A stretch of 29,594 nt of DNA. Origin: Dehalococcoidia bacterium (GTDB taxonomy: Bacteria > Chloroflexota > Dehalococcoidia > Lucifugimonadales > UBA3495). The notes under the pieces were generated by a model, which saw only the letters and a program-made list of their open reading frames with translations, did no database searches and was not told where the DNA came from. This document shows, piece after piece, positions 493-20,973 of the stretch (positions are counted from its first letter, which is position 1; every line of letters starts with the position of its first letter). Location: positions 1 through 29,594 of the forward strand of contig JASLXV010000060.1 in assembly GCA_030740155.1 (NCBI GenBank). Direction: 5' to 3'. The translations under genes were made by a program, and so were the position numbers.

Positions 493-608
493 ACGAACGG
501 GGAAGTGGCCATGCCCGCGAATGTTCTCCCTGCCGTGGGGGTCCCCCGTTTGGGAGGATTTCCCAGTTCTCAGGGGTTTTCCCCGTTCGTGGTGAGCCTG
601 TCGAACCA
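493..608. repeat. REP-like repeat pair (CCGTTCGTGGTGAGCCTGTCGAACCA type)
   Basis: CCCCGTTCGTGGTGAGCCTGTCGAACCA at 581-608; 12-bp inverted partner ACGAACGGGGAA (493-504) / TTCCCCGTTCGT (579-590). Confidence 0.65.
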
Positions 609-647
609 CGGCGGCTGGTTATTGGATAGGCTGTTGACACCCCCTCT

Positions 648-673
648 GTCATTCCGGCGAAGGCCGGAATGAC
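648..673. repeat. REP-like palindrome GTCATTCCGGCGAAGGCCGGAATGAC
   Basis: Perfect 11-bp stem with GAAG loop; a related copy lies at 25096-25122. Confidence 0.75.
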
Positions 674-786: not shown

Positions 787-2463
787 CTAGACGCTGACTG
801 GCGCCCGCCACTCTCCGTAAACCTCCCGCAACACGTCGGACACCTCGCCGATGGTAGCCTCGGCTTGAATGGCTTCCAGCGTGGAGGGCATCAGGTTGGC
901 GGCGTCTTGGGCGGCGGCCTTCAGTGCCTGAAGCTTTTGGGAAACCGCCCGGCGGTCCCGGTGGCGGCGCATGGACCGCAGCTCGGCCTTGGCCTGGCGG
1001 GCCACGCTTGGGTCGGGGTGATGGAGGGTGAAGGGAGGCGGCGCCTCGTTGGTGAAGCGGTTCACGCCCACGATGACCCGGTCACCGCGCTCCACCTCTC
1101 GCTGGAAACGGTAGGCCTCTTCGGTGATCTCCCGCATAACCCATCCCGATTCGATGGCCCGCAGCATCCCCCCGTGGGATTCGATGCGCTGGAGGTACTC
1201 CTCCACATCCTCCTCGATGCGGTTGGTGAGGGCCTCCACGGCGTAGGAGCCTCCCAGGGGGTCTATCACCTCGGCCAGTCCGCTTTCGTAGGCGACGATC
1301 TGCTGGGTACGCAGGGCCAGGGTCGCGGCCTCCTCCGAGGGCAGGGCGTGGGCCTCGTCCATCGACGCGGTGTGCATGGATTGCACCCCCGCCATGGCCA
1401 TGATAACCGTGTGCAGGGTCACCCGCACTATGTTGTTCTCCGGTTGCTGGGCCGTCAGGGTACTGCCCCCGCTGCCGGCCCCAGTGCGGAAGATCAGGGA
1501 GCGAGGGTTGGTGGCCCCGTATTCATCTTTGAGCCAGCGGGCCCACAGCCGCCGGGCGGCCCGGAACTTGGCCACCTCTTCCAGGATGTTGTTGAAGACG
1601 CTGAAATTGAAGGCGATACGGGGAGCGAACTCATCCACGGTCAGGCCTCGGGACAGGGCCTCGTCCATGTAGGCCCGGGCATTGCCAAAGGCGAAGGCCA
1701 ACTCTTGGACCAGGCTGGACCCGGCCTCCCGGATGTGATATCCGCATATGTTGATGAAGTTCCACCGTGGCATGTGTCGGACGCAAAACTCGAAGAGGTC
1801 CACCGTCATTCGAATGGAGGGACCGGGCGGAAAGACGTAGTTCCCCCGGGCGATGAACTCTTTGAGTATGTCGTTCTGGGTCGTGCCTCCCACCTGGTCG
1901 AGGGGCAATCCTTGGGCCTGAGCCACCTTCACGTACATGGCGAGGGTGGAGGGAGCCGAGGCGTTGACCGTAAGGGATGGGGTAACCTGCCGTAACGGCA
2001 GGTCTTTGAAGAGGGCTGCCATCTGGCGGATGCTCGGACAGGAGTTGCCCACTTTGCCGACCTCACCCACGGCCTCGGGGTGGTCCGGGTCCATGCCCAA
2101 CTGGGTGGGCAGGTCAAAGGCCACGTTCATGCCGGTGAGGCCCTGCTGGAGCAGGTGCTGGAACCGTCGGTTGGTCTCCTCGACGGTGTCGTAGCCCGCG
2201 TACTGGCGCATGGTCCAGAGCCGGTCCAGGTACATGCCGGGGTGAATTCCCCGGGTGTAGGGGTACTCGCCGGGAAATCCCAGGTCTCGAAGGTAGTCAC
2301 TGCCAGCCACGTCAGCCGGGGTGTAGAGGGGCTTGCGGGGGGCGCCGGAGGCGGCCGGGGAGGCTCCCGGCGAATCGTCGTGCCGGTCCAGGGACTTCGC
2401 CAGCTTCCGGTCGTACTCCTCGCAGGCCTCCTGGAGGGTTTCCGCGGCCTTGTTCTTCCGCAT
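787..2463 (-). CDS. Acyl-CoA mutase large (substrate-binding) subunit, methylmalonyl-CoA mutase family; no B12-binding domain
   Basis: Motifs [62 protein letters not shown] at 2463 is preceded by AGGAGG. 558 aa with no DxHxxG domain. Confidence 0.93.
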
Positions 2464-2523
2464 GGTCTTGCCTCCTGTTCCCGTGGTGGGCACGGGACCG
2501 CCACGCCGGGTGGAGCCGTACTC

Positions 2524-3660: not shown

Positions 3661-3688
3661 TTGAAACTCGGGGACCGTGTGCTAAGCT
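3661..3688 (+). promoter_or_regulatory. Putative sigma70 promoter for the CapA-family gene
   Basis: TTGAAA-N16-TAAGCT with extended TG. Confidence 0.45.
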
Positions 3689-3754
3689 CTAGCTGGGAAC
3701 GGCCGCGCTTAAACCCGGGGCGCGGCCCAGTTGGCTCGGGAGGTGCCGGTCGAA

Positions 3755-4894
3755 ATGGTTCAGAACAAAGAGAAGGCAATCACACTGGTGGGCGTGGGGG
3801 ACATCAGCCCCAACCGGGACGATCCGGCCTCGATTTTTCGTCACTGCCGCGACGCATTCCGCGCCGCCGACATAGTTTTCGGGCAGATGGAGAGCCCCCT
3901 CTCCGATAGGGGCACACCCCAGTTCATCCCCCATGTACCCTGCCGGCTCGCGCCCAAGAATGTCACCGCCCTCACCGAGGAGGGCGCCGGGTTCGACGTG
4001 ATGTCCTTCGCTTGCAACCACGCCATGGACTATGGAGAGGAAGCTTTCCTCGATACCCTGGATGCTCTCGCCAATAACGGCATAGCCGTGGCCGGCGCGG
4101 GCCGGAACATCCAAGAAGCCAGGAAGCCCGTGGTCCTCGAAAGAGACGGCACCAAGTTCGGCGTGTTGGCCTACCTCTCCATCTTGTCTCCCGGCCTGGA
4201 GGCGGAAGAGGAAATTCCCGGCTGCGCCCCTTTGCGGGCATCCCATTACTACCGGCAGGTCGACGTCCAGCCGGGCACCCCTCCCGCCATCATCATGGCG
4301 GTGGCGCCGGAGCACCTGCAGGCGATGGAGGAGGACATCAAGAGACTGAGACCCCAGGTGGACGTGGTGGTGGTCTCCATGCATTGCGGCGTTCACTTCG
4401 TGCCCGTCGTGGTGGCCATGTACCAGAAAGAAGCGGCCTACGCGGCAATCGATGCCGGAGCGGACCTGGTGCTCCAGCACCACGCTCATATCCTCAAGGG
4501 CATCGAGGTTTACAAGGATAAGGCCATCTTCTACGGCCTGGGCAATTTCGCCCTGGAGCACAGCCAGCCGGCCTCCCAGGCCGCACCTCTGGGGACGACG
4601 GCGGCGCGTCTACGGGACTTCTACCACATCAAGCCCATTCCGGGATATGAAAGATACCGGTACCATCCCGACGCCATCAAGACCATGATCGCCAAGGCCT
4701 ATGTGCAAGACAAGAAGATCCAGAAGGTGACCTACATCCCTGCCTACGTCAACCCCGACCTGGAGCCCGTGGTGGTGAAACGAGGAGATTCACAGGCCCA
4801 GGAGGTCTTCGACTACGTTCAGAAGATCTCGGAAGAAGAGGACCTGAACGTCAGCTTCTCTTGGGACGGCGACGAGGTCTTGATTTCGGGCTAG
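3755..4894 (+). CDS. CapA/PgsA-family metallophosphoesterase (poly-gamma-glutamate synthesis-like)
   Basis: Motifs VGD, ACNHAMDYG, VSMHCG, AGADLVLQHHAH, YGLGNF; GGAGGT upstream of ATG 3755. Confidence 0.88.
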   Translation: MVQNKEKAITLVGVGDISPNRDDPASIFRHCRDAFRAADIVFGQMESPLSDRGTPQFIPHVPCRLAPKNVTALTEEGAGFDVMSFACNHAMDYGEEAFLDTLDALANNGIAVAGAGRNIQEARKPVVLERDGTKFGVLAYLSILSPGLEAEEEIPGCAPLRASHYYRQVDVQPGTPPAIIMAVAPEHLQAMEEDIKRLRPQVDVVVVSMHCGVHFVPVVVAMYQKEAAYAAIDAGADLVLQHHAHILKGIEVYKDKAIFYGLGNFALEHSQPASQAAPLGTTAARLRDFYHIKPIPGYERYRYHPDAIKTMIAKAYVQDKKIQKVTYIPAYVNPDLEPVVVKRGDSQAQEVFDYVQKISEEEDLNVSFSWDGDEVLISG

Positions 4895-4988: not shown

Positions 4989-6929
4989 CTACTCGATGTC
5001 TTTAAGGAACTCTTCCATGCCCAGCCGCTTGAGGGTCTCGGGAGTGGGCAGCCCCGTAGCCACGTTCCAGCCCATCTGGCCATAGTACTCGTCCACCATG
5101 GCGGGAAGATAGGGCTTGATGCTCAAACCCTTGGACGGGCCGGCGGGTGGCGCCTCCAGGTGTTTCTCGGAGATGTCGAACTCGTCCTGCTTCTGAAATC
5201 CCCTCCTGGCGTACACCAACCGCATCAGGTTGGTGACCCGCTCGCCGACCGTGAGGGCCTCCGGCAGGTCGAAATCCTCCCACCCGACGCCCTGGGCCAG
5301 GGAATCGGCGGTGAGGCGCAGGGAATCCGGGACGCCCCGCGCGGCGAACATGCAGACGCCCAGGCAGTCCCAGAACAGCTTGGCGAACTGGGTCTTGCGG
5401 ACCGGGTCCACCTTGGCGATGGCTTCCTCGGCGTTGTGGGCCACCCCCGGAGTGCTCTCTGGGTAGCCCAGCTCCGGGTTGCCCACCATGTCGATGCCCG
5501 ATCCCTGGATCGAGGGCCCGGTGCCCGCTATCAGCTCGCCGAAAAAGGTGCCCCAGAATTGGCGGTGGTCGTGGGCCACCACCCCGGCGCCCTTCACGTC
5601 CAGCACCTTGCTGCGCATCTTCTCCACCAGTCCCTTTTCGCTGCCCAAGGCCTCGGGAAGGGCCTTGGAGCCCAGGGCCAGCTTGGCGCCGATCCCCTCC
5701 CTCCGGATGGCCCGGTTGATCAGTTCCATGGCCGATTCCCAGTTGCCCCACGTCAGGTCCAAGCCGTCGGTGTCCTCCTGGGTGAGGATGCCTTCGTTGT
5801 AGGCCTCGTACACCGCGCCCATGATGGTGCCGAATTGGCCCGACTCCAGCCCCATGCCGTCGTAGAAGTCGGTCATGATCACGATGCCGTTGGGGTCGTC
5901 CACGCCGATCATGCCGGCGGCGCCCTCCATGTTCTCGGCGCCTCCGCAGGGGCTCCCCACGAACCCGGCGTAGGGGCCGTCAGTTATCTCCACGTCGTAG
6001 GCGCAGGATATCTTGCAGTTGTAGGACGGCTGGGGGGTAATCTTCCAGCGGGCGCAGGCCTCAACGTAGTTAAGGGAATACTGGGCGCCCCATTCCGGGT
6101 CGGTCATGTTCTTGCCCGCGACCCTCAGGGTCTTGCCCAGCCGGTTGTAGTATTCACGGCTCTCGCCCCCGTCCTTCAGGCCCATCGCCGAAGGCGGGAC
6201 CACGAAGCTCTTGGCGGGGTCGGGCATCAGGTTTTCCTCCCACTCGGCGGAGGTCTTCACCAGCCCCTCGGGGTCGAAAACGGGAACGGCGCCGGTGCCC
6301 CGCACCGCGATGGCCTTGAGGTTCTTGCTGCCCATCACGGCCCCCGGACTGCCTTTACCGGAGCCGTGGTTGCGGTCCGCCTTCACCATGGCCCCGGGAA
6401 GCACCGCCTCGCCGGCGGGGCCGATGCAGGCCACGCTGATGAACTCCTCGTCCCCCAGCTCCACCTTGAGGCGGCGCTCGGTTTCCCTGGTGTTCACGCC
6501 CCACAGGTGGCTGGCGTCGCGCAGCTCCACGTGGTCGTCGTCGATCCAAAGGTATTGAGGCTTCTCGGCCCGGCCCGTGATGTAGATGCCTTCGTGCCCG
6601 GCGTGCTTCAGGTAGGCCCCCCAGAAGCCGTGGCCGTGGCCCACCCCGGCGGAGTAGGGTATGAGGAGGTTGTAACAGATGGTGGCCCAGTCGGAGGAGT
6701 TGTTGGCGGGGGTCCCCGTCAGTGGCCCCGCCATGAAGATGAGGGGTGCGTCGGCCTCGGTAGCCTCGGCCTTTGGGGGTGCGTCGCGCAGCAGCAAGTA
6801 TATGCCCAGGCCGGTGCCGCCCACGTACTTGCGCAGGATATCCTCACTGGGCAGGGGCTCCCTGGTGATCGTGCCCTGATCCAGGTCTACACGCAGGATA
6901 TGAGGCCGGTATCCTCCACGAATCGCCAT
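4989..6929 (-). CDS. Aldehyde:ferredoxin oxidoreductase family protein (W/Mo-bis-pterin), paralogue 1
   Basis: ILRVDL, YVGG, GPLTG, LKHAG, DASHLWG, ACIGPAGE, GAVMGSKNLKAIAVRG, DCLGVC, YYGQMGW; AAGGAGG RBS before ATG 6929. Confidence 0.92.
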   Translation of the reverse strand: MAIRGGYRPHILRVDLDQGTITREPLPSEDILRKYVGGTGLGIYLLLRDAPPKAEATEADAPLIFMAGPLTGTPANNSSDWATICYNLLIPYSAGVGHGHGFWGAYLKHAGHEGIYITGRAEKPQYLWIDDDHVELRDASHLWGVNTRETERRLKVELGDEEFISVACIGPAGEAVLPGAMVKADRNHGSGKGSPGAVMGSKNLKAIAVRGTGAVPVFDPEGLVKTSAEWEENLMPDPAKSFVVPPSAMGLKDGGESREYYNRLGKTLRVAGKNMTDPEWGAQYSLNYVEACARWKITPQPSYNCKISCAYDVEITDGPYAGFVGSPCGGAENMEGAAGMIGVDDPNGIVIMTDFYDGMGLESGQFGTIMGAVYEAYNEGILTQEDTDGLDLTWGNWESAMELINRAIRREGIGAKLALGSKALPEALGSEKGLVEKMRSKVLDVKGAGVVAHDHRQFWGTFFGELIAGTGPSIQGSGIDMVGNPELGYPESTPGVAHNAEEAIAKVDPVRKTQFAKLFWDCLGVCMFAARGVPDSLRLTADSLAQGVGWEDFDLPEALTVGERVTNLMRLVYARRGFQKQDEFDISEKHLEAPPAGPSKGLSIKPYLPAMVDEYYGQMGWNVATGLPTPETLKRLGMEEFLKDIE

Positions 6930-6997
6930 GGTTTTCCTCCTTGCTTCGGGGGCGGCGACGGCGCCGTCCCGCACCAACTGGCGTCGGTGATGCGCCG

Positions 6998-8896
6998 CTA
7001 CGCTTCCGCCCTTCCCACCTGGACGCCTTCCATGCCTAGCCGCTGCAGCGCCTCCTGGCTGGGCGCACCGCTATCCTGGTCCCAATCGAGGCACTCGTAG
7101 TACTCCTGGAACCACCTTTCCAGGTGCGGCCCGGCGGGAATAACCCTGCCCTTCATGGGCCCGGCATCCAGGCCCGCCAGCATGCGCGGACTGATGTCGA
7201 AGTCGTGCTCCCGCTTGTAGCCCAGGTGAAGGGCCATCAGGCGCTGCAACGTGACCAGGCGCTCGCCGGTAGTCAATGCCTCCTCGCGGGAATAGCCCTC
7301 CCATCCGGTGGCGGCGGAAAGCGCCTTGATGGCGGGATCCCAGGTGCCGGGCGTGCGCTTCAGGGCGAAATGGCAGACACCGATGGTATCCTCCCAGAGC
7401 TTCTTGAACTGCCCTTTGTAGACCGGCTCAACCATTCCGTCAGGACTCATGGGGTCGACAAACTCGTAGCCCAGATCGGGAGCACCGGCCCGGGGCGGAA
7501 GAACCAGCCCCAGCTCCGTCTGCCACACCGGCCCGGCGCCGGCGATGAGCATCTGGAATATGAGGCCCGGGTGAATCCGCATGTCGTGGTCGTTGAAGCC
7601 CGTTCCCTTCATGTGGATTGCCAGGTCTTCGATGCCCAGTTCCCGGCCACATTCCCGGGGCGGCTTGGCCAGGGAAGCGCCGATGCCTTCCCGGCGCACC
7701 GTCTTCTCCAACAGCTCGATGACGGCCTCATAGTTGCCCCAGGTGAGGTCCAGGCCGTCCACCTCGTCCTGGTTGAGGCGCTCGGTGTTGTAGGCCTCCA
7801 TCACCATGGCGATATTGCGGGGCACCTCTCCCCCGTCCAGTCCCAGCCCGTCCACCATGCCGGTAATGGCCAGGGCAACGCCGGGGTCGTCGATGCCCAG
7901 GTTGGGGCCGGTCTGCTGAATGATCTCACCGCCGTAGCCTGAGACCACGGTTCCGGCCACGGGCCCGGTGGTGATCACCGTCTCGTGGTGGCAGGTCATG
8001 TCGCAGTTGAATCCCCCGACGGGGCGCACCTTCCATTTGGGAGTGTCCTCTTCCCAGCGGTCCTTCCAGTGATATTGGAAGTCCGGATCGCTATAGTTCT
8101 TCCCCTGGACGTTGCCCCGGTCGGGGACGTTGGCGAAGGTGCCCGGGACCACCGAGTGGGAGTGCTGTGAGGGCGGCGGGCGCTCCGATGCGTAGAGGGC
8201 CCGGTTCCAGGTCTCGTAGGCCTCCATGAGGCCCGCGGGGTCGGTGATGGGTGCCCGGCCGGTGCCCCGCACGGCGATGGCTTTGAGCAACTTGGAGCCC
8301 CAGGCGATGCCGGCCTCGCCCCGGGCCGCGGTGTAGGTCCCGTCGGAGCGCACCGCAGCCCCGGTGATCAGGTTCTCCCCACCGGGACCGATGCAGGCGA
8401 CGCTGATCTGGAGAGGATCGCCCAACTCCAGCTTGATGCGTCGCGGCGTCTCGAAGGTGTCCATTCCCCAATAGGGAGCGGCGTCGCGCAACTCTACATT
8501 TTGGTCCTCGATCCAGAGGTACACCGGCTTGGGCGAAACGCCCCGGACGACGATGCCATCCCAACCGGCGTGCTTGAGCCGGGCGCCAAAATACCCGTGG
8601 GCGTGGCTCAGCCCCACGTGGTAGTCGGGGCACTCCCTCAGGTTGACCAGGACCCAGTGGGAGGCGTTCGGCACCATGACACCGGTGAGGGGGCCGGTGA
8701 ACAGGTAGAACGGGCAGTCGGGATCGACCGGGCGCATGGTGGGGGTTATCTCCTGGGCCATGAGGAACAGGCCGACGCCCGTGGCGCCGCCATAGGCCCG
8801 CAGCACCTCCTCCGGGGGCATGGGCACGGACCGGGTGGTCCCGCTGGTCAGGTCTACCTCCAGGATTTGGCCTTGGAACCCGCCTTTTACAGCCAT
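6998..8896 (-). CDS. Aldehyde:ferredoxin oxidoreductase family protein, paralogue 2
   Basis: ILEVDLT, GPLTG, LKHAGWDG, ACIGPGGEN, WGSKLLKAIAVRG, DGLGLD, DTIGVC, YYECLDWD; GGGAGGT RBS before ATG 8896. Confidence 0.92.
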   Translation of the reverse strand: MAVKGGFQGQILEVDLTSGTTRSVPMPPEEVLRAYGGATGVGLFLMAQEITPTMRPVDPDCPFYLFTGPLTGVMVPNASHWVLVNLRECPDYHVGLSHAHGYFGARLKHAGWDGIVVRGVSPKPVYLWIEDQNVELRDAAPYWGMDTFETPRRIKLELGDPLQISVACIGPGGENLITGAAVRSDGTYTAARGEAGIAWGSKLLKAIAVRGTGRAPITDPAGLMEAYETWNRALYASERPPPSQHSHSVVPGTFANVPDRGNVQGKNYSDPDFQYHWKDRWEEDTPKWKVRPVGGFNCDMTCHHETVITTGPVAGTVVSGYGGEIIQQTGPNLGIDDPGVALAITGMVDGLGLDGGEVPRNIAMVMEAYNTERLNQDEVDGLDLTWGNYEAVIELLEKTVRREGIGASLAKPPRECGRELGIEDLAIHMKGTGFNDHDMRIHPGLIFQMLIAGAGPVWQTELGLVLPPRAGAPDLGYEFVDPMSPDGMVEPVYKGQFKKLWEDTIGVCHFALKRTPGTWDPAIKALSAATGWEGYSREEALTTGERLVTLQRLMALHLGYKREHDFDISPRMLAGLDAGPMKGRVIPAGPHLERWFQEYYECLDWDQDSGAPSQEALQRLGMEGVQVGRAEA

Positions 8897-9208
8897 GACG
8901 GACCTCCCTGATTCAGCAAAGTTTCTACCATTTATAGATTCCTCTGAGAGATTCCTCGCCGGAGGAATGCTGTCGGCTACCGGTTTCCTCGTCGATCCCC
9001 GCGGCTGCGCCGGCGTAGGCCATAGTCCATAGCGAGGGATGACGGGATACCCCATACGCCCAAGGCGGTCGCCATGACGCCGGTGGCGTTGATGCCCAGG
9101 GGTTTCGAGGAGCCTGGTTCCCCTATTTTGGTCCAATAATGTAGGAGGGGGCGGTGTCGATCACCCGTGGACCGAGGCTGAAGAAGAAGGCTCCTCCGGA
9201 TACCGCCA

Positions 9209-11131: not shown

Positions 11132-14100
11132 TCACCCTTCGCCGATGCGCAGGACCTGCTGGACTTCCAATCTGAAGGTGATCCAGGCCAGCCAGGCCAC
11201 CGTACCCGCGGTGACTCCGGCCAGGACCAGATACGACACCAGCAGGGTGGTCCAGTTGGTTTGGAGGACCATGGGAGGAGTCACCCTGGCCCCTTCCTCG
11301 GCTCTCTCCATCAAAGGCAATAGGCTGGCGCCAACCCATTGGCCGGCCAGGCTACCCAGCCCGATGCCACAGGCCACCACTAGAATAACACTGAACCACA
11401 CCACCCCCGTGAGTTGCGCCTTGGACGAGCCGAGGGTCCGCATGATAGCAAACTCGGTCTGGCGGTCGCGGGTATCGAGGTAGGAGAAGAGCATTATCCC
11501 CGAGGTGGTGGCCAGGGCAACTACCAGGAACACCAGCACCAGCAGGCCGCCCCAGCCGGCGTTGACCAGTGGCCGATCGAAGGTTTGCGATACCATTTCC
11601 CAGGCCACCACGGTTTCCCGCAGCCGCAGACCGCGCTCTTCCAGAGCGGCCACTATGGGGCCGGTGTCCCCGTCCGGGTCCCGCAAGCTGACCCACAGCT
11701 CGTCGGACCCACCCAAGGGCCTGGGGCTGTGGAGGTTCGCCTGTGGAGTGAAGATATTCAAGTCTACGACGGCGAACGGGTCCTCCCTTGGGTCCAGAGT
11801 GGGGAAATAATCGGCCACCGCCACTGCCTTGAATGGCAAGGAGTAGGTGGATAAGCTCAGGTTCAGCGTGTCACCCACCCGGGCTTCAGCCGCCTCGAGA
11901 AACGACCTGCTTACCACCGCCGGAATCGGCTCTTCCGGACTGCCCGCCCGGAGACCCCGGAGCCCGACGCCTCCGGGGGCCCAGCTAAACACCGCCGACC
12001 CTCCTCTCCCCTCCGGGCCTGCCAACTCGCTGGCGTCCAGGGCGTAGAGGCCGGGCCGGGAGTAGTCCTCGGTCACGTGCCATTGCCCGCGCCATTGAAC
12101 GAGGTCCCCGAAATCGGCAATTATCTCCTCTGCTTCGCCCGTCAGGGCCGACAATCGCCACAGAAACAGGGCTCCAGGGTCCTGGGGCCCACCCCTGCTG
12201 CCGAGGTAGATGGAGAACAGGGTGAAGGGCGGCGTCACTTTGGGAGGCTGCTCCCGGCCCCGGCGACCGAAAAGGGGTACCGGCACGAGTTCGGCTTCCA
12301 GGCGTCGCCAGCCGCGGAAATTCAAGCCTCCCAGGAGGGCGTCGAAGTAGTATCCGTTGGCGTCCCGGAGCCTGGCCAGGACCGCCAGTCCGGGGTCGGG
12401 CCGGCTCGGCTGGACCCAGAGCGCCAGGCCGCCGGCCTCATGGGGGAGATCGATGCCATCTTTCGGAGATGGCTCGGCCGCCGGAGGTGGGGTGATGGGA
12501 GCGGTGAGGTCGGCCAAGGACTTCCCTCCGGCGAAGTCGGGGCGATACCAGGCCACCCGGCTGAAATTCTCCGCGTCCACTTCGAGGACCGCAACGCTGG
12601 TGGTGATGAAACCGCTGGTCAACAAAGAGCCTCGGTCGCGCCGCCCCTCGGCGGCCCCGGCCACCGCTTCCATCTCGCCCGCCAGGTCCGCGAAACCCGG
12701 CGCGTCCACCGCGCCGGCCGTGCCCGTATGCCGGATGCGCAGGTCGGCCCCCGCGGCGTACAGGACCCGCTCCCGCTGGCTGCGCTCCAGGGTGGAGCTG
12801 AAGGCGCTTCCGATGACTCCCAGGCCGGTCGCCAAGGTAAGCAGGATGATCAGGGCCCCGGGCATGATGGGGTCTCTGGATACGTGTCTCAGCCCGTGCA
12901 CCAGCCAGGAAGGGCCCACCGGCTCGGTGACTCGGGCTACCAGGGACAGGACGATGGGAAAGACGCGCAACACCAGGAGGCCGATCGCCAGAAGCTCCAG
13001 TAACGGGCGGAACAGGCCGATGTAGTCGATCTGGAGTTCCCGGCTATCCAAGGTCTGCACCAGGAAGGTCTCCCGGGTCTGGGTCTGCCACCAGAGCGCG
13101 CCAATCAACACCAGCAGCAGAACGTCCAGGTAGTAGCGATGAATAAAGGGCGCCCGAGGAGGCCTGGCTTCCGTTTGGCGAAACTCGACGATGCCCTGCC
13201 GGGCCGCGACCAGGGTCAACACGGTGAGCGCTCCGACCGCCAGAAGGCCTCCCGCCAGCCCCAAAAAGAAAGCGAGGGGGGAAAGGGAGACCGGGACCGA
13301 CGCCAGCTCCCCGCCGCCGCCGAGCCCAAAAAAGAACCGCCCCAAGAGCCGGACCACGGCCAACGCCATCAAAGGCCCGAACACAACCGCGGGGACGGCC
13401 AGGAGCGAGCCTTCCGCCAGCGCGAGCAGCCCCACCTGTGAGGTGGTGGCCCCCCGGCTCTTGAGCATCGCTATCTCGGTGCCCCGGGATTTGACCACCA
13501 GTCCCGAAACCAGGCCCAGGTAATAGACAAGTATGCCGGTGACCAGAAAGACGATCATGAAGAGGGGAATGCGGGCCAGCCTCAATTGCTCTTTATAGTC
13601 GTCCAGCACCCGGTCCAGCTTGATGGCGATGCTGGCGTTATTCAGATTGGCGGGCACGTCGCGCCTGATGGAGCGGGCCAGGCCCTGGAGGTCGTTCACG
13701 TCCCTGGCCCGGACCCCTTGGCGGTCCAGGTAGAAGAACCAGGTGGTGTCAATGAACAGCGATGGGTACCGGCCGAGCATCCGGTTCAGAATGGCTTCTT
13801 CCGTGGTGAACAGAGGGATATAGGTCCAGCGATCACTCTTGAAGCTGAACTCCCGGCTGGCGCCGAACCAGAACTCGTCCTCGGGGTCAACCCGCTCGAA
13901 AACGCCCACAATCTTGGCCTGCATCGAGGGTGGGCCGGTGGAGGACGACACGGTGAAGGACGAGGCGGGGAAGATCTCCATCTCGTCGCCGACACCGAGC
14001 TGGAGCAGCTCCGCCCCCAACGTATCTATGGCTACCTCCATCGGTCTTTCGAAGTCAGCCTGGGCCACGGACAAGCCGGAATAGGGCCAGCTCCCCTGGA

Positions 14101-14551
14101 CCATTCGGATGCGGTCCGGCAGCAGCCCAGTGAAGTATTGGACATCACCCCGCGGCCGCGTGTCGTCGGCCAGCTCCAATTGCGGGTGACCCTTGAAGAA
14201 GAAGGTGGGGCTCTCGAGAAGGTGAGCCCGGTCTCGCAAATAGGACTGGAAACGCGACTCCACCCGTTCCTCGGTGAAGCCGAGGCCGGCCCGGTAGGCG
14301 GCGACCCGTCCCGCGGCCGTGGGCGGAGCATCCTGGCCGATGAACGTCCTGACCAGAATGTTGGTTTCCTCGGCGCTGGCCTGATCCAGCGAATGGCGCA
14401 GGGCAGCCTCCGACAACAGGTCGGAGAAGATGACGCCGCTTGACATCAACGCCACCGCTATCAGGATTCCCAGGAACAGGACCAGCTCCAGCCGCCAGCC
14501 GGAGATGGTCCGTTTCAGGGCGATGATGTAGGCCAGTGGCAAGAGGGACAT
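11132..14551 (-). CDS. Large FtsX-like ABC permease
   Basis: Two FtsX-type repeats (RGTEIAMLKSRGAT; RQTEFAIMRTLG), GADL motif, large extracytoplasmic domains, multiple TM segments. Confidence 0.9.
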   Translation of the reverse strand: MSLLPLAYIIALKRTISGWRLELVLFLGILIAVALMSSGVIFSDLLSEAALRHSLDQASAEETNILVRTFIGQDAPPTAAGRVAAYRAGLGFTEERVESRFQSYLRDRAHLLESPTFFFKGHPQLELADDTRPRGDVQYFTGLLPDRIRMVQGSWPYSGLSVAQADFERPMEVAIDTLGAELLQLGVGDEMEIFPASSFTVSSSTGPPSMQAKIVGVFERVDPEDEFWFGASREFSFKSDRWTYIPLFTTEEAILNRMLGRYPSLFIDTTWFFYLDRQGVRARDVNDLQGLARSIRRDVPANLNNASIAIKLDRVLDDYKEQLRLARIPLFMIVFLVTGILVYYLGLVSGLVVKSRGTEIAMLKSRGATTSQVGLLALAEGSLLAVPAVVFGPLMALAVVRLLGRFFFGLGGGGELASVPVSLSPLAFFLGLAGGLLAVGALTVLTLVAARQGIVEFRQTEARPPRAPFIHRYYLDVLLLVLIGALWWQTQTRETFLVQTLDSRELQIDYIGLFRPLLELLAIGLLVLRVFPIVLSLVARVTEPVGPSWLVHGLRHVSRDPIMPGALIILLTLATGLGVIGSAFSSTLERSQRERVLYAAGADLRIRHTGTAGAVDAPGFADLAGEMEAVAGAAEGRRDRGSLLTSGFITTSVAVLEVDAENFSRVAWYRPDFAGGKSLADLTAPITPPPAAEPSPKDGIDLPHEAGGLALWVQPSRPDPGLAVLARLRDANGYYFDALLGGLNFRGWRRLEAELVPVPLFGRRGREQPPKVTPPFTLFSIYLGSRGGPQDPGALFLWRLSALTGEAEEIIADFGDLVQWRGQWHVTEDYSRPGLYALDASELAGPEGRGGSAVFSWAPGGVGLRGLRAGSPEEPIPAVVSRSFLEAAEARVGDTLNLSLSTYSLPFKAVAVADYFPTLDPREDPFAVVDLNIFTPQANLHSPRPLGGSDELWVSLRDPDGDTGPIVAALEERGLRLRETVVAWEMVSQTFDRPLVNAGWGGLLVLVFLVVALATTSGIMLFSYLDTRDRQTEFAIMRTLGSSKAQLTGVVWFSVILVVACGIGLGSLAGQWVGASLLPLMERAEEGARVTPPMVLQTNWTTLLVSYLVLAGVTAGTVAWLAWITFRLEVQQVLRIGEG

Positions 14552-14653
14552 CAATCCCCGCTCCGATAATCTTGCTTACTATCCGGCTTCTCTGACAACT
14601 TGCTGCTTCTTCCCGTCTCGGCGGTGTTGGTGGTGAGTGGTAGAGTGATTTCT

Positions 14654-17600
14654 TCACTCCCCGGTCCGCAGAATATCCGGCACCCGGAGCCGGCGGGCCA
14701 CCAGGGTGGCGAAGAGCAGGGACAGGAGGCTCGCCGCCGCCAGTCCGGCGAAGACCAGCGCCGCCAGCCACCCCTGGACGCTCACGTCCATCGGGGGAAG
14801 CACGGGCCGCCCGGAGGCGGTGATGTCCAGGAATCCCAGGACCCACCGGCCCAGCCCGAAACCGATGGCGCCGCCGGCCCCCAGGCCCAGCACCGCCACC
14901 AGCAGCCGTTCCAGGCCCAAGGATAGGAATATCTGTGCCCTGGAGAACCCCAGCGCCCGGGCCACCGTCAGGTCCACCCGGCTGGTGTGTATGGCCACCG
15001 CCGCGTGCATGGCCAGAGTCAGGACCACGGCCACGGTAACCGCCGACAGTCCCAGAATGGTGAGGCCGTTCCAACCGCCGCCGGCCAGAGGGTTGCGCCG
15101 TGTCATCTCGACCTGAGCATCCCGGTCCTGGACCGAGACGAACCCCGGCAGAACCTCCGCCAGGTCGTGGACCACCTGTTCGCGGCCGGCCTGCTCCTGG
15201 GGCGAGACCCAGATTTCTTGGGGCGCTTTGAAACTTCCCTGGGGTGACCGATGGAGATACTCCCGGTAGTCCGCCAAGGCCACGAGAAGGAAGGGCCGGG
15301 ACGACGGGTCCAAGGTGGGGAAGTAGCCGGTGGTATCCATCACCACCAGGGGCACCACTTGCCTTCCCGCCCTGACGCGCAGCCGTTGGTCCACGTGAAA
15401 CATGGAGCCCCCGACGGTGGGGAGGGGAAAGGGCCCGTGGGGCAGGAATACGCCTCGAGGGGTGGTGCCGAGGGGCTCTTGCCAGGTGAATCGAAGGCCT
15501 GCCCGGCCGTTTCCGTCCGCTGGCGAAGTACGCTCGATGGTGTCCGCCGTCTCCCCTTCGATTGCCAGGGGCGTCCATCCCCCGATTTCCTCATACCCCT
15601 CGATGATGACTCCGGGGGGCGGAATGGACGGGCCTTGGACCGTGATGTCGTCCAGGTCGAGGATGCCCGGCGGCGCCGCGGTAAGCGCCTTCTTACTCAT
15701 GAAGATGGAGACCACCCTGGCCGGATGTTTCAACGACCGGCTCTCATCGGTCAGCGGCGCTTCGAAATAGCTCCATTCTGGTCCCTCGTCTCTAGAAGAG
15801 GGCGGTTGCGAGCCCGCCGGCGCGCCTTCCGGAGGGTCCCGCAGGTCGCCCAGCAGCACGTTGCGGTATCGCCCATCGCCGTCTTGGACCCGCGCCCACA
15901 GGTTCAGGCTCAGCCGGGTTTGTCCCAACTCCGGGATTTCCAGTTTCGCCCAGATGCCGATGCGCTCACCGCCCGTTGGAATTGCTATGCCAGTGCCGCC
16001 GCCCTGACCCGGAGTGGGTGACACCCAGCGGGTCCGGGTGATGGGACTGAGCAACTCCCGGAGGTCTTTGCCGGCGAAATCCTCCTTGAACCAGGCGGCG
16101 GCAGGCAGGTCGACCGGGTCAACGCCCAGTAGGGTGGCGGTATCGCCCGGGAACCCATCCAGCAGGTTCACGGTGTCACGGGCGATGGGGCTGACCGCCT
16201 GGACCCCCGGCGTGACGGCGACTGTTTCCAGAGATGAGTCGGAAAAACTCCGGCCCCGGACGGCTAGGTCACCCCCCAGGCGGTACAAAGCCTGCTCCAC
16301 GTGGCTCCGGGCCAGAGTGGCCTGAAAGCTGGCGCCGAAAACGCCCAGGGCCGCGGCCATCATCAGGATGACCACCAGGGCGCCGTGGGGCAGTGGGTCT
16401 CGCGACAGGCGGACCAGGGAGAAGGCCAGCCACGGTGGGCCGAAGCGGCTCCCGGCCCAGGCGAAGAACCGGACCAGCCACGGCAGGACTCTCAAGGCCA
16501 GCAACGCGGCCGCCAGGAGCCCGAGGACCGGCCCGAAAAGCAGGCTGGGGTCGGCTTGCAGGGTCCTGGTGGACACGTCACGCTCGATGAATCCGCCCCG
16601 GCTGCTGATCTGCCACCACAGCAGCCCCAGCGCCGCCAGCACCAACAGGTCCACGTAGTACCGGTGCAAAAGCGGCACCGTGGGCGGCCGGGCCCTGTCC
16701 CTCAAAGATTCCATGGTGCCAAGGCGGGCGCGGGTCAACGCCGAAGCCGCCAACACCCCGAGGGCCAGGAGGCCTCCGATGGTGCCCACGACAAACATGT
16801 CCGCCGAGAGCCCGACCGAAAGGCCGCCGGGGCCCACGCCCAATGGGTCAATGGTCCGCAGCAGCAGGTACCGCACGATGGCCAGGGCCAGGAAAGGCCC
16901 GGCCACCACGGCAAGAACGGCGATGGCCCCCTCGCCGAGGACCAGCAGGGTGCTCACCTGGAGGAGGCCGGCGCCCCGGCTTCTCAGAAGTCCGGCCTCT
17001 TCGGTCCGGGAGCGCGCCAGCAGCCCCATGACCAGGGCCATTGCATAGAGGATGACCACGACTATGAGGGCGATGAAGAGGTAAAGCGGAACCCGGGCCA
17101 GGTCCAATTCCTTCTGGTAATCCGCGAGGCTCTTATCGAGGCCGGTGATCACCAGAGAGCGGGGAAACTTCTTGTTGATGTCCGTCTCCAGCCCGGTGAC
17201 GTTATCCTCGGTCTGGTTGGCCGTGCTGGCGGTCAACACGCCGGAGTCGACGAATAGGAACCATCTGAAGTCGCCCACCATGGCCGGGTACTTCGTGCCC
17301 AAGCCCTCGAAGAAGTCGTCCTCTCGAAGGTAGAAGGGCAGCAGTAGGTCATCTTCGATCCCCTGCAGCCGGAAGTAGGCCAGGGAGTTCATCCAGTACT
17401 CTTCCCGGGGGTCCTTGGGCTCGGCCAGGCCCACCACGTTGAGCACGATTTGCTCCGAGGAGTCGGTCCTGAAGGGAAAGATGGACATCCGCGCGCCCAC
17501 CTGGAGACCGAGGCTGGAGGCGGCTCGATCCCCTATCACCGCTTCCAGCTCCAGCCCCCGGTCGTGGAGCACGGGAGCGGTTGCGGGCCACCTGCCTTCA

Positions 17601-18031
17601 ACCAGCCGGGAATGCTCCCGGAAGCCGGTGAGGAAGAAGGGCCGCCCGAAGGGCCCGCCGACCGGCGGGGGCTGTCCCTCTGCCGAGAACACCAGGTGCA
17701 GGTTTGGCTGGGTCCGGCCGAAGCGCTGGATATCTCGCACCAGGTAATCGAGGCGGGCCCTGGTGATCTCCTCGACGTCGGCCCGGAGCTTCCGGTAGTC
17801 GGCCGGCCCCAAGGGCCGGTTCTGCAGGATCACGTGGGCGTTCAGGATCGTGGGGGCGGTCGTGGCCAGCTTGTGGCGAAGGCCTCCTTCCGCCAGAGCG
17901 CGGGAGTAGACGGCGCCGACCGACATCAGGGTTACGGCGGCCAGTATCCCAAAAGAGCTGATGGCCAGAAGCATCCAGGAGGCGCGGAGGCGGCGCGCCA
18001 AGAGCCAGTAGAGCACACCGGTCCAGCCCAT
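14654..18031 (-). CDS. Large FtsX-like ABC permease (paralogue)
   Basis: RTEEAGLLRSRGA and RVDLTVARALG repeats, GGDL; collinear with the neighbouring permease. Start 18031 chosen, 18079 possible. Confidence 0.9.
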   Translation of the reverse strand: MGWTGVLYWLLARRLRASWMLLAISSFGILAAVTLMSVGAVYSRALAEGGLRHKLATTAPTILNAHVILQNRPLGPADYRKLRADVEEITRARLDYLVRDIQRFGRTQPNLHLVFSAEGQPPPVGGPFGRPFFLTGFREHSRLVEGRWPATAPVLHDRGLELEAVIGDRAASSLGLQVGARMSIFPFRTDSSEQIVLNVVGLAEPKDPREEYWMNSLAYFRLQGIEDDLLLPFYLREDDFFEGLGTKYPAMVGDFRWFLFVDSGVLTASTANQTEDNVTGLETDINKKFPRSLVITGLDKSLADYQKELDLARVPLYLFIALIVVVILYAMALVMGLLARSRTEEAGLLRSRGAGLLQVSTLLVLGEGAIAVLAVVAGPFLALAIVRYLLLRTIDPLGVGPGGLSVGLSADMFVVGTIGGLLALGVLAASALTRARLGTMESLRDRARPPTVPLLHRYYVDLLVLAALGLLWWQISSRGGFIERDVSTRTLQADPSLLFGPVLGLLAAALLALRVLPWLVRFFAWAGSRFGPPWLAFSLVRLSRDPLPHGALVVILMMAAALGVFGASFQATLARSHVEQALYRLGGDLAVRGRSFSDSSLETVAVTPGVQAVSPIARDTVNLLDGFPGDTATLLGVDPVDLPAAAWFKEDFAGKDLRELLSPITRTRWVSPTPGQGGGTGIAIPTGGERIGIWAKLEIPELGQTRLSLNLWARVQDGDGRYRNVLLGDLRDPPEGAPAGSQPPSSRDEGPEWSYFEAPLTDESRSLKHPARVVSIFMSKKALTAAPPGILDLDDITVQGPSIPPPGVIIEGYEEIGGWTPLAIEGETADTIERTSPADGNGRAGLRFTWQEPLGTTPRGVFLPHGPFPLPTVGGSMFHVDQRLRVRAGRQVVPLVVMDTTGYFPTLDPSSRPFLLVALADYREYLHRSPQGSFKAPQEIWVSPQEQAGREQVVHDLAEVLPGFVSVQDRDAQVEMTRRNPLAGGGWNGLTILGLSAVTVAVVLTLAMHAAVAIHTSRVDLTVARALGFSRAQIFLSLGLERLLVAVLGLGAGGAIGFGLGRWVLGFLDITASGRPVLPPMDVSVQGWLAALVFAGLAAASLLSLLFATLVARRLRVPDILRTGE

Positions 18032-18100
18032 AATCTTGCTATCCGCGACTCTGAGTTGGCCATCGGGCCATTCAACCATCCACGGGTTCCAATGGCAGGC

Positions 18101-19578: not shown

Positions 19579-20700
19579 CTAGAAGGTAGAGGGCTCCGGG
19601 ACGCCGTCGTTAAAGGGTCGCGGCGCGTCCGCGGGTTCCCAGTTCAATTCCTCCACCCGTCGCTTCATCTGCTCCAGTCTTGAGAAGTCGCTGATTCCCG
19701 ATACCAGGGTTACGGCTGAAAGATACTTGCTTCCGCTTTCGGGATAATCTCCGTATCTAACCTTGCCGACCGTGGTTATTTGCTCGAGGCGGGCCCGTCC
19801 TCTGGAGATTGGTTGAGTGTAAAGGTGTTCCGGCTTCCCATGTATCACCAGCGCCGCGGACCGGCCGCCGCTGACGTCGCACGGGAAGGTCAGCGCGCTT
19901 TTCGCGATGCTCCTCTCGATTATGCTCTCCAGTTCGTGGGTGCCGGGGTCGATCCCCTTGCGCCAGAAGCGGGCCTTGGACTTCACCACTTCGCTGCAAT
20001 ATCCGATCGTAGACACGTCGCCGATCAGGCCCAGCGTTGCCTTGATCTCCGACGAGCTGAAGACCTCCTGGGGTGAGGGCCTAACTTCCCCGGCATTCAG
20101 CAGCGTGGTTAGAGTCAGCGCCAATTTCTGATTCACCCGGGTGTACATGCGTTCCACGGATTCCCGGCTGACCAGGTTGTCCTCATACTGCTGATTGTCC
20201 ACCAGCAGGATGTTGTTGAAGTAGTGGCTCCAAAGCTCGAAGCTCTTGAGCGCATTCGAAAGACTTAAGGCCTCTTTGTCCGACGGCATGTCGCTTACCG
20301 AGGGGACGACCCCCAGCGCATACACTGGGGTGCCCCGGTAAACCCGGTTGAGTTCATTGGCCAGAACGTAGGAACCACCGGCCCCGGTCCCGCCGGCCAG
20401 CCCGGCGGCGATCCAGAAAGCCTCCGGATCAAACCGGTGAACGAGGATGTCAATCCTATCCATCACCTGGGACAGGGCTTTCTCGGCGATGCTTGCACCT
20501 AGCTCGATGTTTGCGCCGACGCCTCTGCCCTTGAGGGCATACCTGCCGATGAGGACCTTGTCGTGGATATTGTTAAGCCCCACCAGGTCCGCTTGTTCCG
20601 TGTTAATGGCTATCGCCTCATAGAGTTTCCGGTTCGTCCCCCGCAGGGTATTGGCTATCTTTCCACCGGCTTGTCCGTATCCAATCCATAGTACTCGCAT
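19579..20700 (-). CDS. Tubulin/FtsZ superfamily GTPase, CetZ-like
   Basis: IGYGQAGGKI (T1), AINT, KGRGVGAN (T3), AGLAGGTGAGG (T4), DN, SSSEIKATL (T7), STIGY, LTFPC, VRYGDYP; GGAGG RBS before ATG 20700; 373 aa. Confidence 0.9.
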   Translation of the reverse strand: MRVLWIGYGQAGGKIANTLRGTNRKLYEAIAINTEQADLVGLNNIHDKVLIGRYALKGRGVGANIELGASIAEKALSQVMDRIDILVHRFDPEAFWIAAGLAGGTGAGGSYVLANELNRVYRGTPVYALGVVPSVSDMPSDKEALSLSNALKSFELWSHYFNNILLVDNQQYEDNLVSRESVERMYTRVNQKLALTLTTLLNAGEVRPSPQEVFSSSEIKATLGLIGDVSTIGYCSEVVKSKARFWRKGIDPGTHELESIIERSIAKSALTFPCDVSGGRSAALVIHGKPEHLYTQPISRGRARLEQITTVGKVRYGDYPESGSKYLSAVTLVSGISDFSRLEQMKRRVEELNWEPADAPRPFNDGVPEPSTF

Positions 20701-20973
20701 CTCTTGAAGCCTCCCCTTATTGATCGGCCCATCGAGGCTGGGCCGGGCCGGAGCTACTGATCCGATAACCTCATACTGGGCCACCCGTGGCGGCAACGTA
20801 TCTGAGGCCAGGGGTCTCCTCCGCCTCTCCCGGTACTTCCCGCAAAGGACTCGGGGTTACCGGGTGGTGTCAATTATTTTCGGGCCGGCCAGTGGGTCTC
20901 GTGGTGCGTGGGTCACACCCTGGGCGGCTTGGCGCTCCGGCTTGCCGAGTTGGTCCCCGGTTTCAGCGCCCCG

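Follow-up and report, generated by a model that had tools for sequence, protein, structure and literature searches.

The locus described here raises the question whether a gene that databases label as a methylmalonyl-coenzyme A (CoA) mutase (MCM) encodes an enzyme for a different substrate. The window, the whole stretch of 29,594 nucleotides (nt) that was analyzed, is contig JASLXV010000060.1 (C60) of the Dehalococcoidia bacterium assembly GCA_030740155.1 (genome G000), and the mutase gene lies close to one of its ends. Only a few acyl-CoA mutase specificities have been characterized, namely those for methylmalonyl-, ethylmalonyl-, isobutyryl-, pivalyl- and hydroxyisobutyryl-CoA, and two more, for hexylmalonyl- and benzylmalonyl-CoA, have been proposed. 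The clade to which the window protein belongs is annotated everywhere as MCM, yet it forms a conserved extra paralogue whose active-site wall is built differently. With a probability of about 0.55, the protein is read here as a mutase distinct from ordinary MCM that would catalyze a radical 1,2-shift on a dicarboxylic acyl-CoA bulkier than methylmalonyl- or succinyl-CoA.

The first-pass annotation of this DNA placed the gene at positions 787 to 2463 without giving a strand. Both boundaries were right and the strand is minus. Translation from the ATG at 2463-2461 yields 558 amino acids (aa), and the longest frame, which runs from a GTG at 2493 down to 787, yields 568 aa. The ATG at 2463 is the likely start codon, because an AGGAGG sits 5' of it and the homologues are mostly 557-558 aa long; the alignment of the clade starts at M11 in the numbering of the GTG frame. 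All residue numbers below follow the GTG frame, and those of the ATG protein are lower by 10. The sole domain of the 558-aa protein is the Pfam family MM_CoA_mutase (PF01642), which is matched with 649 bits against a cut-off of 22.1, and the mutase model TIGR00641 is matched with 634.9 bits against a cut-off of 303.8. The NCBIfam MCM equivalog NF006944 is hit with 529 bits, under its cut-off of 876, but this model describes the fused form of 721 aa and penalizes a split protein. The absence of a fused B12 domain, which had been claimed before, is borne out by this single-domain architecture and by the lengths of the listed homologues (554-597 aa). Judged by its sequence, the gene is predicted to encode the intact large, substrate-binding subunit of an adenosylcobalamin (AdoCbl)-dependent acyl-CoA mutase.

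Active-site residues were mapped by HMMER alignments to 1req, 5req, human MCM and HcmA, and are cited in the numbering of P. shermanii MCM; the tyrosine column was anchored by 5req, a Y89F mutant that shows F at this column. All six motifs quoted in the first-pass annotation, including MRQYAG, FRTGAGSGG, SMHTA and GMNVAFD, were found in the translation. In the alignment to P. shermanii MCM, Y89, R207 and E370 are kept, and H328, Q330 and N366 are replaced by Gly, Gly and Ala. Tyr89 and Arg207, which hold the substrate carboxylate in MCM, correspond to Y98 and R216 of the window protein. Gln197 is likewise kept (Q206), as are Tyr243 and His244 (Y252 and H253) and Glu370 (E380); in MCM these four act in catalysis, and Glu370 binds the ribose. 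The earlier statement that the carboxylate-binding pair persists was therefore correct (Y98 and R216 in 121 of 121 sequences), and so was its corollary that the protein is not of the isobutyryl-CoA (ICM) or 2-hydroxyisobutyryl-CoA (HCM) mutase type; the same applies to the pivalyl-CoA mutase (PCM) type, as Tyr and Arg are present in the alignment to 1req, and not Phe or Ile together with Gln. The departures from MCM lie elsewhere. Human MCM reads LRAHCQTSGW and SLHTNS, and HcmA reads LRFHCQTAAA and SLHTNG, in the columns where the window protein has FRTGAGSGG and SMHTA, and at positions 328, 330 and 366 all three reference proteins (human MCM, P. shermanii MCM and HcmA) have H, Q and N. A serine (S344) stands at the position of Trp334 in the alignment to the Protein Data Bank (PDB) chains. 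His328 and Asn366 are assumed to border the migrating carbon in MCM and to be exchanged for smaller residues in ethylmalonyl-CoA mutase (ECM).

The substitutions are a property of the whole clade. Among P0001 and the 120 best database clusters (72-99% identical, 121 sequences in all), MRQYAG, GMNVAFD and (E)F[IV/T]ARGNY are each present in 121 of 121. FRTGAGSGG occurs in 119, the other two being one-residue variants that keep both glycines; SMHTA occurs in 119 and SLHTA in the remaining two, and INICGYH is found in 120. Those of the best 120 homologues that carry names are labeled Chloroflexi or Chloroflexota, SAR202 cluster or marine metagenome. The mean column identity over 24 aligned clade members is 83%. 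When 51 members of the clade were set against 60 canonical split MCMs from other loci (the first 60 by name of 62 that qualified), 46 positions proved to be fixed differently in the two groups. His and Gln occupy 328 and 330 in 100% of the canonical proteins and Gly and Gly in 100% of the clade members; Asn366, present in 100% of the canonical proteins, is replaced in 100% of the clade. Further fixed changes (S114N, L113M, S239N, S241C, S285A, F287N, T331S, T163P, M165L and I167V) are spread over several barrel strands, and S114N, S239N, S241C, S285A, F287N and T331S affect inward-facing strand positions. Because the motifs are fixed among homologues and 46 sites separate the two groups, the clade is taken to be a diverged subfamily under selection and not a decaying gene. 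The possibility raised earlier that the substitutions might not be conserved in homologues, which would have implied decay, was checked against the same counts and did not hold.

An AlphaFold2 model, built on an alignment of 115 sequences, reached a predicted local distance difference test (pLDDT) score of 95.5 and a predicted template modeling (pTM) score of 0.94. It superimposes on HcmA (4r3u) with template modeling (TM) scores of 0.94-0.96, a root-mean-square deviation of 1.5 Å and 41% identity, and on MCM (4req/1req) with a TMq of 0.92, the range for MCM structures overall being 0.89-0.92. In the model, G338 and G340 lie in the strand E336-341 and A376 follows directly after the strand E372-374. 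The three residues share the C-terminal, catalytic face of the TIM barrel with Y98 (strand E94-99) and with Y252/H253 (after strand E247-250).

The position of the clade within the mutase family was examined with a FastTree phylogeny of 124 sequences, comprising the query, 10 orthologues or clade members, 6 paralogues and representatives of 520-730 aa. The clade received a support of 100, and its sister group (support 99) consists of the unnamed clusters P0122 and P0127, which also have the two glycines but have lost Tyr89 and His244. Clade and sister group belong to a radiation of non-canonical mutases and are separate from the canonical types with H-Q-N, although support for the deeper nodes is poor (8 and 52). 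Clustering with canonical MCMs, which would have spoken against the original proposal, was not observed. Among the listed sequences that keep Tyr89 and Arg207, the residues at 328, 330 and 366 vary widely. A search against 1.84 billion representatives did not turn up any named close relative, and ten of the nearest representatives carry only generic cluster names ('methylmalonyl-CoA mutase N-terminal domain'), none of them ECM or another named type. A literature search that combined SAR202 with acyl-CoA or methylmalonyl-CoA mutase found no paper on the clade; in the available part of PMC5395668, MCM in the context of SAR202 is mentioned only as a component of the propionyl-CoA pathway.

The genome G000 (3.6 Mb, 108 contigs) encodes five mutase large subunits, three of which are non-canonical. 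One of the five, on C93, is a canonical MCM accompanied by a small B12 subunit and by an epimerase that scores 123.8 bits against a cut-off of 114.95. The window gene is considered an extra paralogue because this complete MCM-epimerase-small-subunit cluster exists elsewhere, in agreement with the earlier view that it is separate from the ordinary MCM of the organism; the cluster belongs to the C93 paralogue and not to the window gene. Three small subunits exceed the TIGR00640 cut-off in G000, at C93:29057-29443, C41:3675-4043 and C41:62956-63294, all of them outside the window, so that the ratio of large to small subunits is 5:3; in the genomes G813, G837, G840 and G956 it is 4:2, and neither of their small subunits adjoins the orthologue of the window gene. 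Gene context was counted over 16 orthologous loci (L182 of G961 was left out, as no copy passed the filter for open reading frames (ORFs) and motifs there), five of which were scanned with Pfam and the other 11 compared by clustering. In these loci the gene is usually an orphan large subunit. Since large subunits outnumber small ones and the gene is usually an orphan, the B12 small subunit is probably supplied in trans, by analogy with what is reported for ActD (PMC5719088).

Two of the loci, L015 (G710) and L141 (G827), carry a divergent large-subunit paralogue, here called mutB, together with a small subunit directly 3' of the gene. mutB is found at L015:5565-7319, at L141:11172-12890 and, in G000, at C41:63340-65064 on the minus strand, where its small subunit occupies 62920-63333 on the same strand; a small B12 subunit of its own always comes next, only a few nt away. 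The protein lacks Tyr89 (VRQVMG), Tyr243/His244 (SISVRNTRE) and apparently Arg207, and it keeps His328, Gln330 and Asn366 (LRFHVQTSG, SMSIN). mutB must be a mutase of a very different kind or else a partner without catalytic function. Another non-canonical large subunit is encoded at C41:2049-3593 on the plus strand with an adjoining small subunit at 3675-4043; it keeps Tyr89, Gln197 and Arg207, has Thr/Gln in place of Tyr243/His244 and shows Ser/Tyr/Pro at 328/330/366.

According to the preferred reading, the window enzyme would use the AdoCbl-dependent radical 1,2-migration of the CoA-thioester carbon that is standard for these mutases. The free carboxylate of the substrate would be gripped by Tyr98 and Arg216, and space would open beside the migrating carbon, because three polar side chains, all of them large, are missing from the catalytic ends of strands 7 and 8. 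A wider pocket, and with it a bulkier substrate, is suggested because the model places the altered residues on the catalytic face, because large side chains have given way to Gly and Ala, and because similar changes in ECM go with a larger substrate. Such an enzyme might accept alkyl-, aryl- or ring-derived substituted malonyl- or succinyl-CoA. Its small subunit would come in trans, either from the gene beside mutB or from the MCM cluster, and it would serve to rearrange carbon skeletons when branched or carboxyl-rich organic acids are degraded. Several points weigh against this proposal. H, Q and N at 328, 330 and 366 are also conserved in ICM- and HCM-type sequences, and the three residues may therefore position the 5'-deoxyadenosyl cofactor instead of choosing the substrate; their role in the pocket is moreover assumed from what holds for MCM and ECM. 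The neighboring genes are inconsistent over the 16 loci and do not show a pathway. In the five Pfam-scanned loci, no crotonyl-CoA carboxylase/reductase or acyl-CoA dehydrogenase lies beside the gene, and the sole gene with a glyoxalase (epimerase) fold is situated about 4 kb downstream of it in L143.

The most conservative alternative is that the gene encodes a second MCM isozyme, in which Gly, Gly and Ala tune kinetics, cofactor handling or stability and leave the substrate unchanged. The retention of Tyr89, Gln197, Arg207, Tyr243, His244 and Glu370, the database name of the clade and the overall fold shared with MCM all fit this explanation. It is nevertheless regarded as unlikely, given that the genome already possesses a canonical MCM with epimerase and small subunit, that three residues invariant in the 60 canonical split MCMs are replaced throughout the 51 clade members, that the 46 fixed differences point to a diverged function, and that the NF006944 score stays below threshold, even if that model represents the fused form. 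Instead of a free carboxylate, Tyr89 and Arg207 could also bind some other polar group, or the substrate could be a dicarboxylate ester of another chain length (glutaryl-type C5 or longer); in either case it would not simply be a bulkier alkylmalonyl-CoA. This idea draws on the linkage of a pyruvate dehydrogenase (PDH)-like 2-oxoacid dehydrogenase E1 in 4 of the 16 loci and of a family-III CoA-transferase in 2, and on the surrounding radiation, in which many residue sets at 328/330/366 occur alongside Tyr and Arg. The E1 genes of G000, however, lie on another contig beside a major facilitator superfamily (MFS) transporter, the synteny may simply mirror kinship among genomes of one family, and none of these observations bears on the substrate directly, which makes this alternative improbable as well.

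A further explanation assigns the window protein to a hetero-oligomer with mutB, comparable to MutA/MutB of P. shermanii, in which one barrel is active and the small subunit encoded after mutB is shared. The order gene-mutB-small subunit in L015 and L141 would suit such a complex, as would the terminal position of the G000 mutB pair on C41, in an orientation that would allow a junction with C60. The losses are also complementary, since mutB lacks Tyr89, Tyr243 and His244 and has His328, Gln330 and Asn366, and the window protein shows the reverse. On the other hand, G813, G837 and G840 contain the window gene but no mutB orthologue (the best match is 43-45% identical and is a canonical paralogue), the pair is found in only 2 of the 16 loci, and the MR/MLE gene running off the end of C41 has no remainder on C60; a hetero-oligomer is accordingly rated as quite improbable. 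Finally, the loss of three otherwise invariant residues could be the mark of a decaying or non-functional paralogue. An intact frame with a strong ribosome-binding site, the complete set of catalytic residues, the 83% mean column identity over 24 members, motifs fixed in 119-121 of 121 sequences, a high-confidence model and exact matches in RNA-library contigs make this a very improbable explanation.

Among known systems, HcmA, the large subunit of the 2-hydroxyisobutyryl-CoA mutase of Aquincola tertiaricarbonis (4r3u), is both the best sequence match of the window protein (478 bits) and the best fold match. Its architecture is the same, with a large subunit that stands alone, measures about 560 aa and requires a separate small B12 subunit. 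The two proteins differ in that HcmA has Ile at Tyr89 (MRQIAG) and Gln at Arg207 (YMAQKEY) and keeps His, Gln and Asn, whereas the window protein does the reverse; given this reversed pattern, a hydroxy-acyl substrate is not expected. MCM (P. shermanii MutB, 1req/4req; human MMUT, 2xiq) shares about 38% identity, the barrel fold and the six key residues, but the window protein differs from it by the lack of a fused B12 domain, by Gly/Gly/Ala at 328/330/366 and by the lack of an epimerase/small-subunit cluster. By its sequence, the clade is a marine Gly-Gly-Ala variant of the split MCM/HCM-type mutase. ECM is a fusion of large subunit and B12 domain that belongs to the ethylmalonyl-CoA pathway, whereas the window protein is split. 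The enzyme (Ecm, or MeaA) is described as keeping Tyr and Arg and as carrying smaller residues at His328 and Asn366 that make room for an extra methyl group, so that the logic of residue change would be the same in both proteins.

Mutases for bulky substrates have precedents. ActD and MatB are proposed (2R)-hexylmalonyl-CoA mutases of actinonin and matlystatin biosynthesis that are split and HCM-like (PMC5719088). ActD resembles the window protein in that it has no adjoining small subunit and uses one encoded elsewhere. Both differ from it, as far as their published description goes, by their location in secondary-metabolite clusters of actinomycetes, where a carboxylase/reductase and an epimerase are also encoded. 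IaaGH is described as a B12-dependent mutase that interconverts benzylmalonyl- and phenylsuccinyl-CoA in anaerobic indoleacetate degradation and works with the family-III CoA-transferase IaaL (PMC8360864). A gene for a family-III CoA-transferase is located three genes upstream of the window-gene orthologue in 2 of the 16 loci, together with an Fpg-like gene and an HSL-type esterase gene; its best NCBIfam matches are carnitine, succinate-glutarate and mesaconate types, all under their cut-offs. Compared by description, IaaGH differs by its other organism group and lifestyle and by its dedicated iaa operon. Neither the carboxylase/reductase and epimerase genes of the Act/Mat type nor iaa genes were found in the window or in the five Pfam-scanned loci.

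Orthologues were searched from G000 with an expectation value (E) of at most 1e-215, and with E at most 1e-150 in the order sample. None was found in the 60 other genomes of the order sample, where the best non-self match is 55% identical, nor in the 300 genomes of the class sample or the 400 of the phylum sample. In the order of G710 the only one among 101 genomes was G710 itself, and in its family 18 of 202 genomes possess an orthologue. A scan of the genome collection gave one true orthologue (L015), and a metagenome scan with the clade alignment listed 80 loci that are 47-59% identical, none of which has FRTG[AG]GSGG. Around the orthologues, a PNPOx-like gene is upstream in 9 of the 16 loci (directly so in 6), usually after genes for an SbcC-like ATPase and a GNAT protein. 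PDH-like E1 alpha and beta genes adjoin in 4 of the 16 loci and were considered as functional partners, but were treated as synteny, since their counterparts in G000 are on C32 next to the MFS transporter. An Rfam scan of the window, L049 and L015 gave no match and hence no cobalamin riboswitch. Luciferase-like monooxygenases, amidohydrolases, lactonases and family-III CoA-transferases are encoded around orthologues at L141:6037-9206, L144:6846-7868 and L171-L181; these neighbors belong to the paralogue-rich catabolic set described for SAR202.

It had been noted before that no gene for a small B12 subunit, MeaB or an epimerase is adjacent. This is literally true within the window but carries no information, as repeats that lie 170-290 nt beyond the stop codon of the mutase gene break the contig, which ends 786 nt past that codon. 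The window is silent on what follows the gene, because its end falls amid the repeats at 1-500 and 575-614. The 1-500 segment has no match in the syntenic relative L015 and could represent a mobile element, a duplication or a mis-join; it holds an ORF of 110 aa (44-376) without a Pfam match. Public DNA contigs break at the dispersed repeat, where sequencing depth is 792 against 18 (about 40-fold) and many loose ends accumulate at 570-613; two loose-end strings from this break map to other copies of the repeat on C23. The region 560-790 folds with a z-score of -2.76. The hairpin at 648-673 was not called by a consensus terminator scan and may be a terminator or a part of the repeat; together, repeat and hairpin look like an element of the repetitive extragenic palindromic (REP) type.

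The closest relative, L015 (89% protein and 86% DNA identity), has the same aldehyde:ferredoxin oxidoreductase and PGA_cap neighbors as the window. There, mutB starts 424 nt past the gene and a B12-binding small subunit of 137 aa follows 6 nt further on. The corresponding pair of G000 is located at the very end of C41, is 87.6% identical to that of L015 at the DNA level and has an orientation that fits a connection to C60, which makes it plausible from sequence that mutB adjoins the window gene in G000 too. A direct join of the two contigs was not accepted: their ends do not overlap, and C60 lacks the continuation of the MR/MLE gene that is cut off at the end of C41. A link through this MR/MLE enolase was also discarded, as the L015 copy shares only 33% identity with the one on C41 and the two do not represent the same gene.

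Table. Features of the mutase gene and the contig end in the window, and mutase-related genes on the contigs of the genome
Feature	Location	Strand	Details
Acyl-CoA mutase large subunit coding sequence	787..2463	-	ORF list and translation; stop codon TAG 787-789
Shine-Dalgarno-like AGGAGG	2471..2476	-	7 nt 5' of ATG 2463; read from the sequence
Tyr98 codon	2200..2202	-	Equivalent to Tyr89, kept; alignment to 1req, 5req
Arg216 codon	1846..1848	-	Equivalent to Arg207, the carboxylate-binding Arg, kept; 1req alignment; 121/121 sequences
Tyr252-His253 codons	1735..1740	-	Equivalent to Tyr243-His244, kept; 1req alignment; GYH in 120/121 sequences
Barrel strand 7, FRTGAGSGG (residues 335-343)	1465..1491	-	Gly338/Gly340/Ser341 at His328/Gln330/Thr331
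Ala376 codon	1366..1368	-	Replaces Asn366; just past barrel strand 8 (SMHTA)
Repeated segment	1..500	.	91% identity with C35:751-1262 and, over a part of the segment, 96% with C12:23383-23609
Dispersed repeat of about 40 nt	575..614	.	At least 9 genome copies with at most 5 substitutions; BLAST matches on C98, C38, C17, C56, C74
Perfect 11-bp hairpin	648..673	-	GUCAUUCCGGC-CUUC-GCCGGAAUGAC; 114 nt past the stop codon; no U tract
Canonical MCM large subunit	C93		MRQYAG, YIARGTY, LRFHTQTAG, SLHVN; epimerase and small B12 subunit within 4 kb
ICM-like large subunit (Phe/Gln)	C54		MRMFAG, YIAQNEY; no adjoining subunit gene
Two strongly divergent large subunits	C41		Each with its own adjoining small subunit
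Window mutase gene	C60		No subunit gene within the window
One MeaB gene	C38		

The exact sequence of the gene recurs in seawater or marine DNA runs of at least eight studies, some of which may be the source of this DNA. Contigs from RNA libraries (2 runs of 2 studies) contain six gene-internal pieces without differing letters; these matches are a hint of expression, with DNA carry-over being possible. If the substrate is a substituted dicarboxylic CoA ester, a new B12-dependent reaction would be added to marine carbon turnover and a widespread annotation would be corrected. In practical terms, the protein offers a target that is defined and expressible, and the residues to mutate are few. It is conceivable, although this broader suggestion is tentative and on the unlikely side, that the clade is a dedicated mutase of marine SAR202-type Chloroflexota that un-branches substituted succinyl- or malonyl-CoA intermediates stemming from dissolved organic matter of a carboxyl-rich, branched or alicyclic nature. 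If true, the degradation of recalcitrant carbon in the ocean would have a control point in a B12 radical enzyme, and hence in the supply of cobalamin, and the five large subunits of the genome, with their three non-canonical pockets, would constitute a small toolkit of such enzymes.

On its upstream side the mutase gene is flanked in the window by a divergent 'putative sensor' gene, beyond which come a PGA_cap gene and a pair of aldehyde:ferredoxin oxidoreductase genes. The members of this pair are arranged in tandem (4989-9136, minus strand), belong to the tungsten or molybdenum AOR family and are kept in synteny in L015. Farther along the minus strand, tandem genes for FtsX-like permeases of 1140 and 1141 aa are followed by two ATP-binding cassette (ABC) ATPase genes (11132-18079). 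The window also holds a gene of the tubulin/FtsZ family (19579-20796, minus strand) whose product shows the CetZ C-terminal domain (PF21011, 101 bits) in a genome of Chloroflexota type; CetZ is known mainly from archaea.

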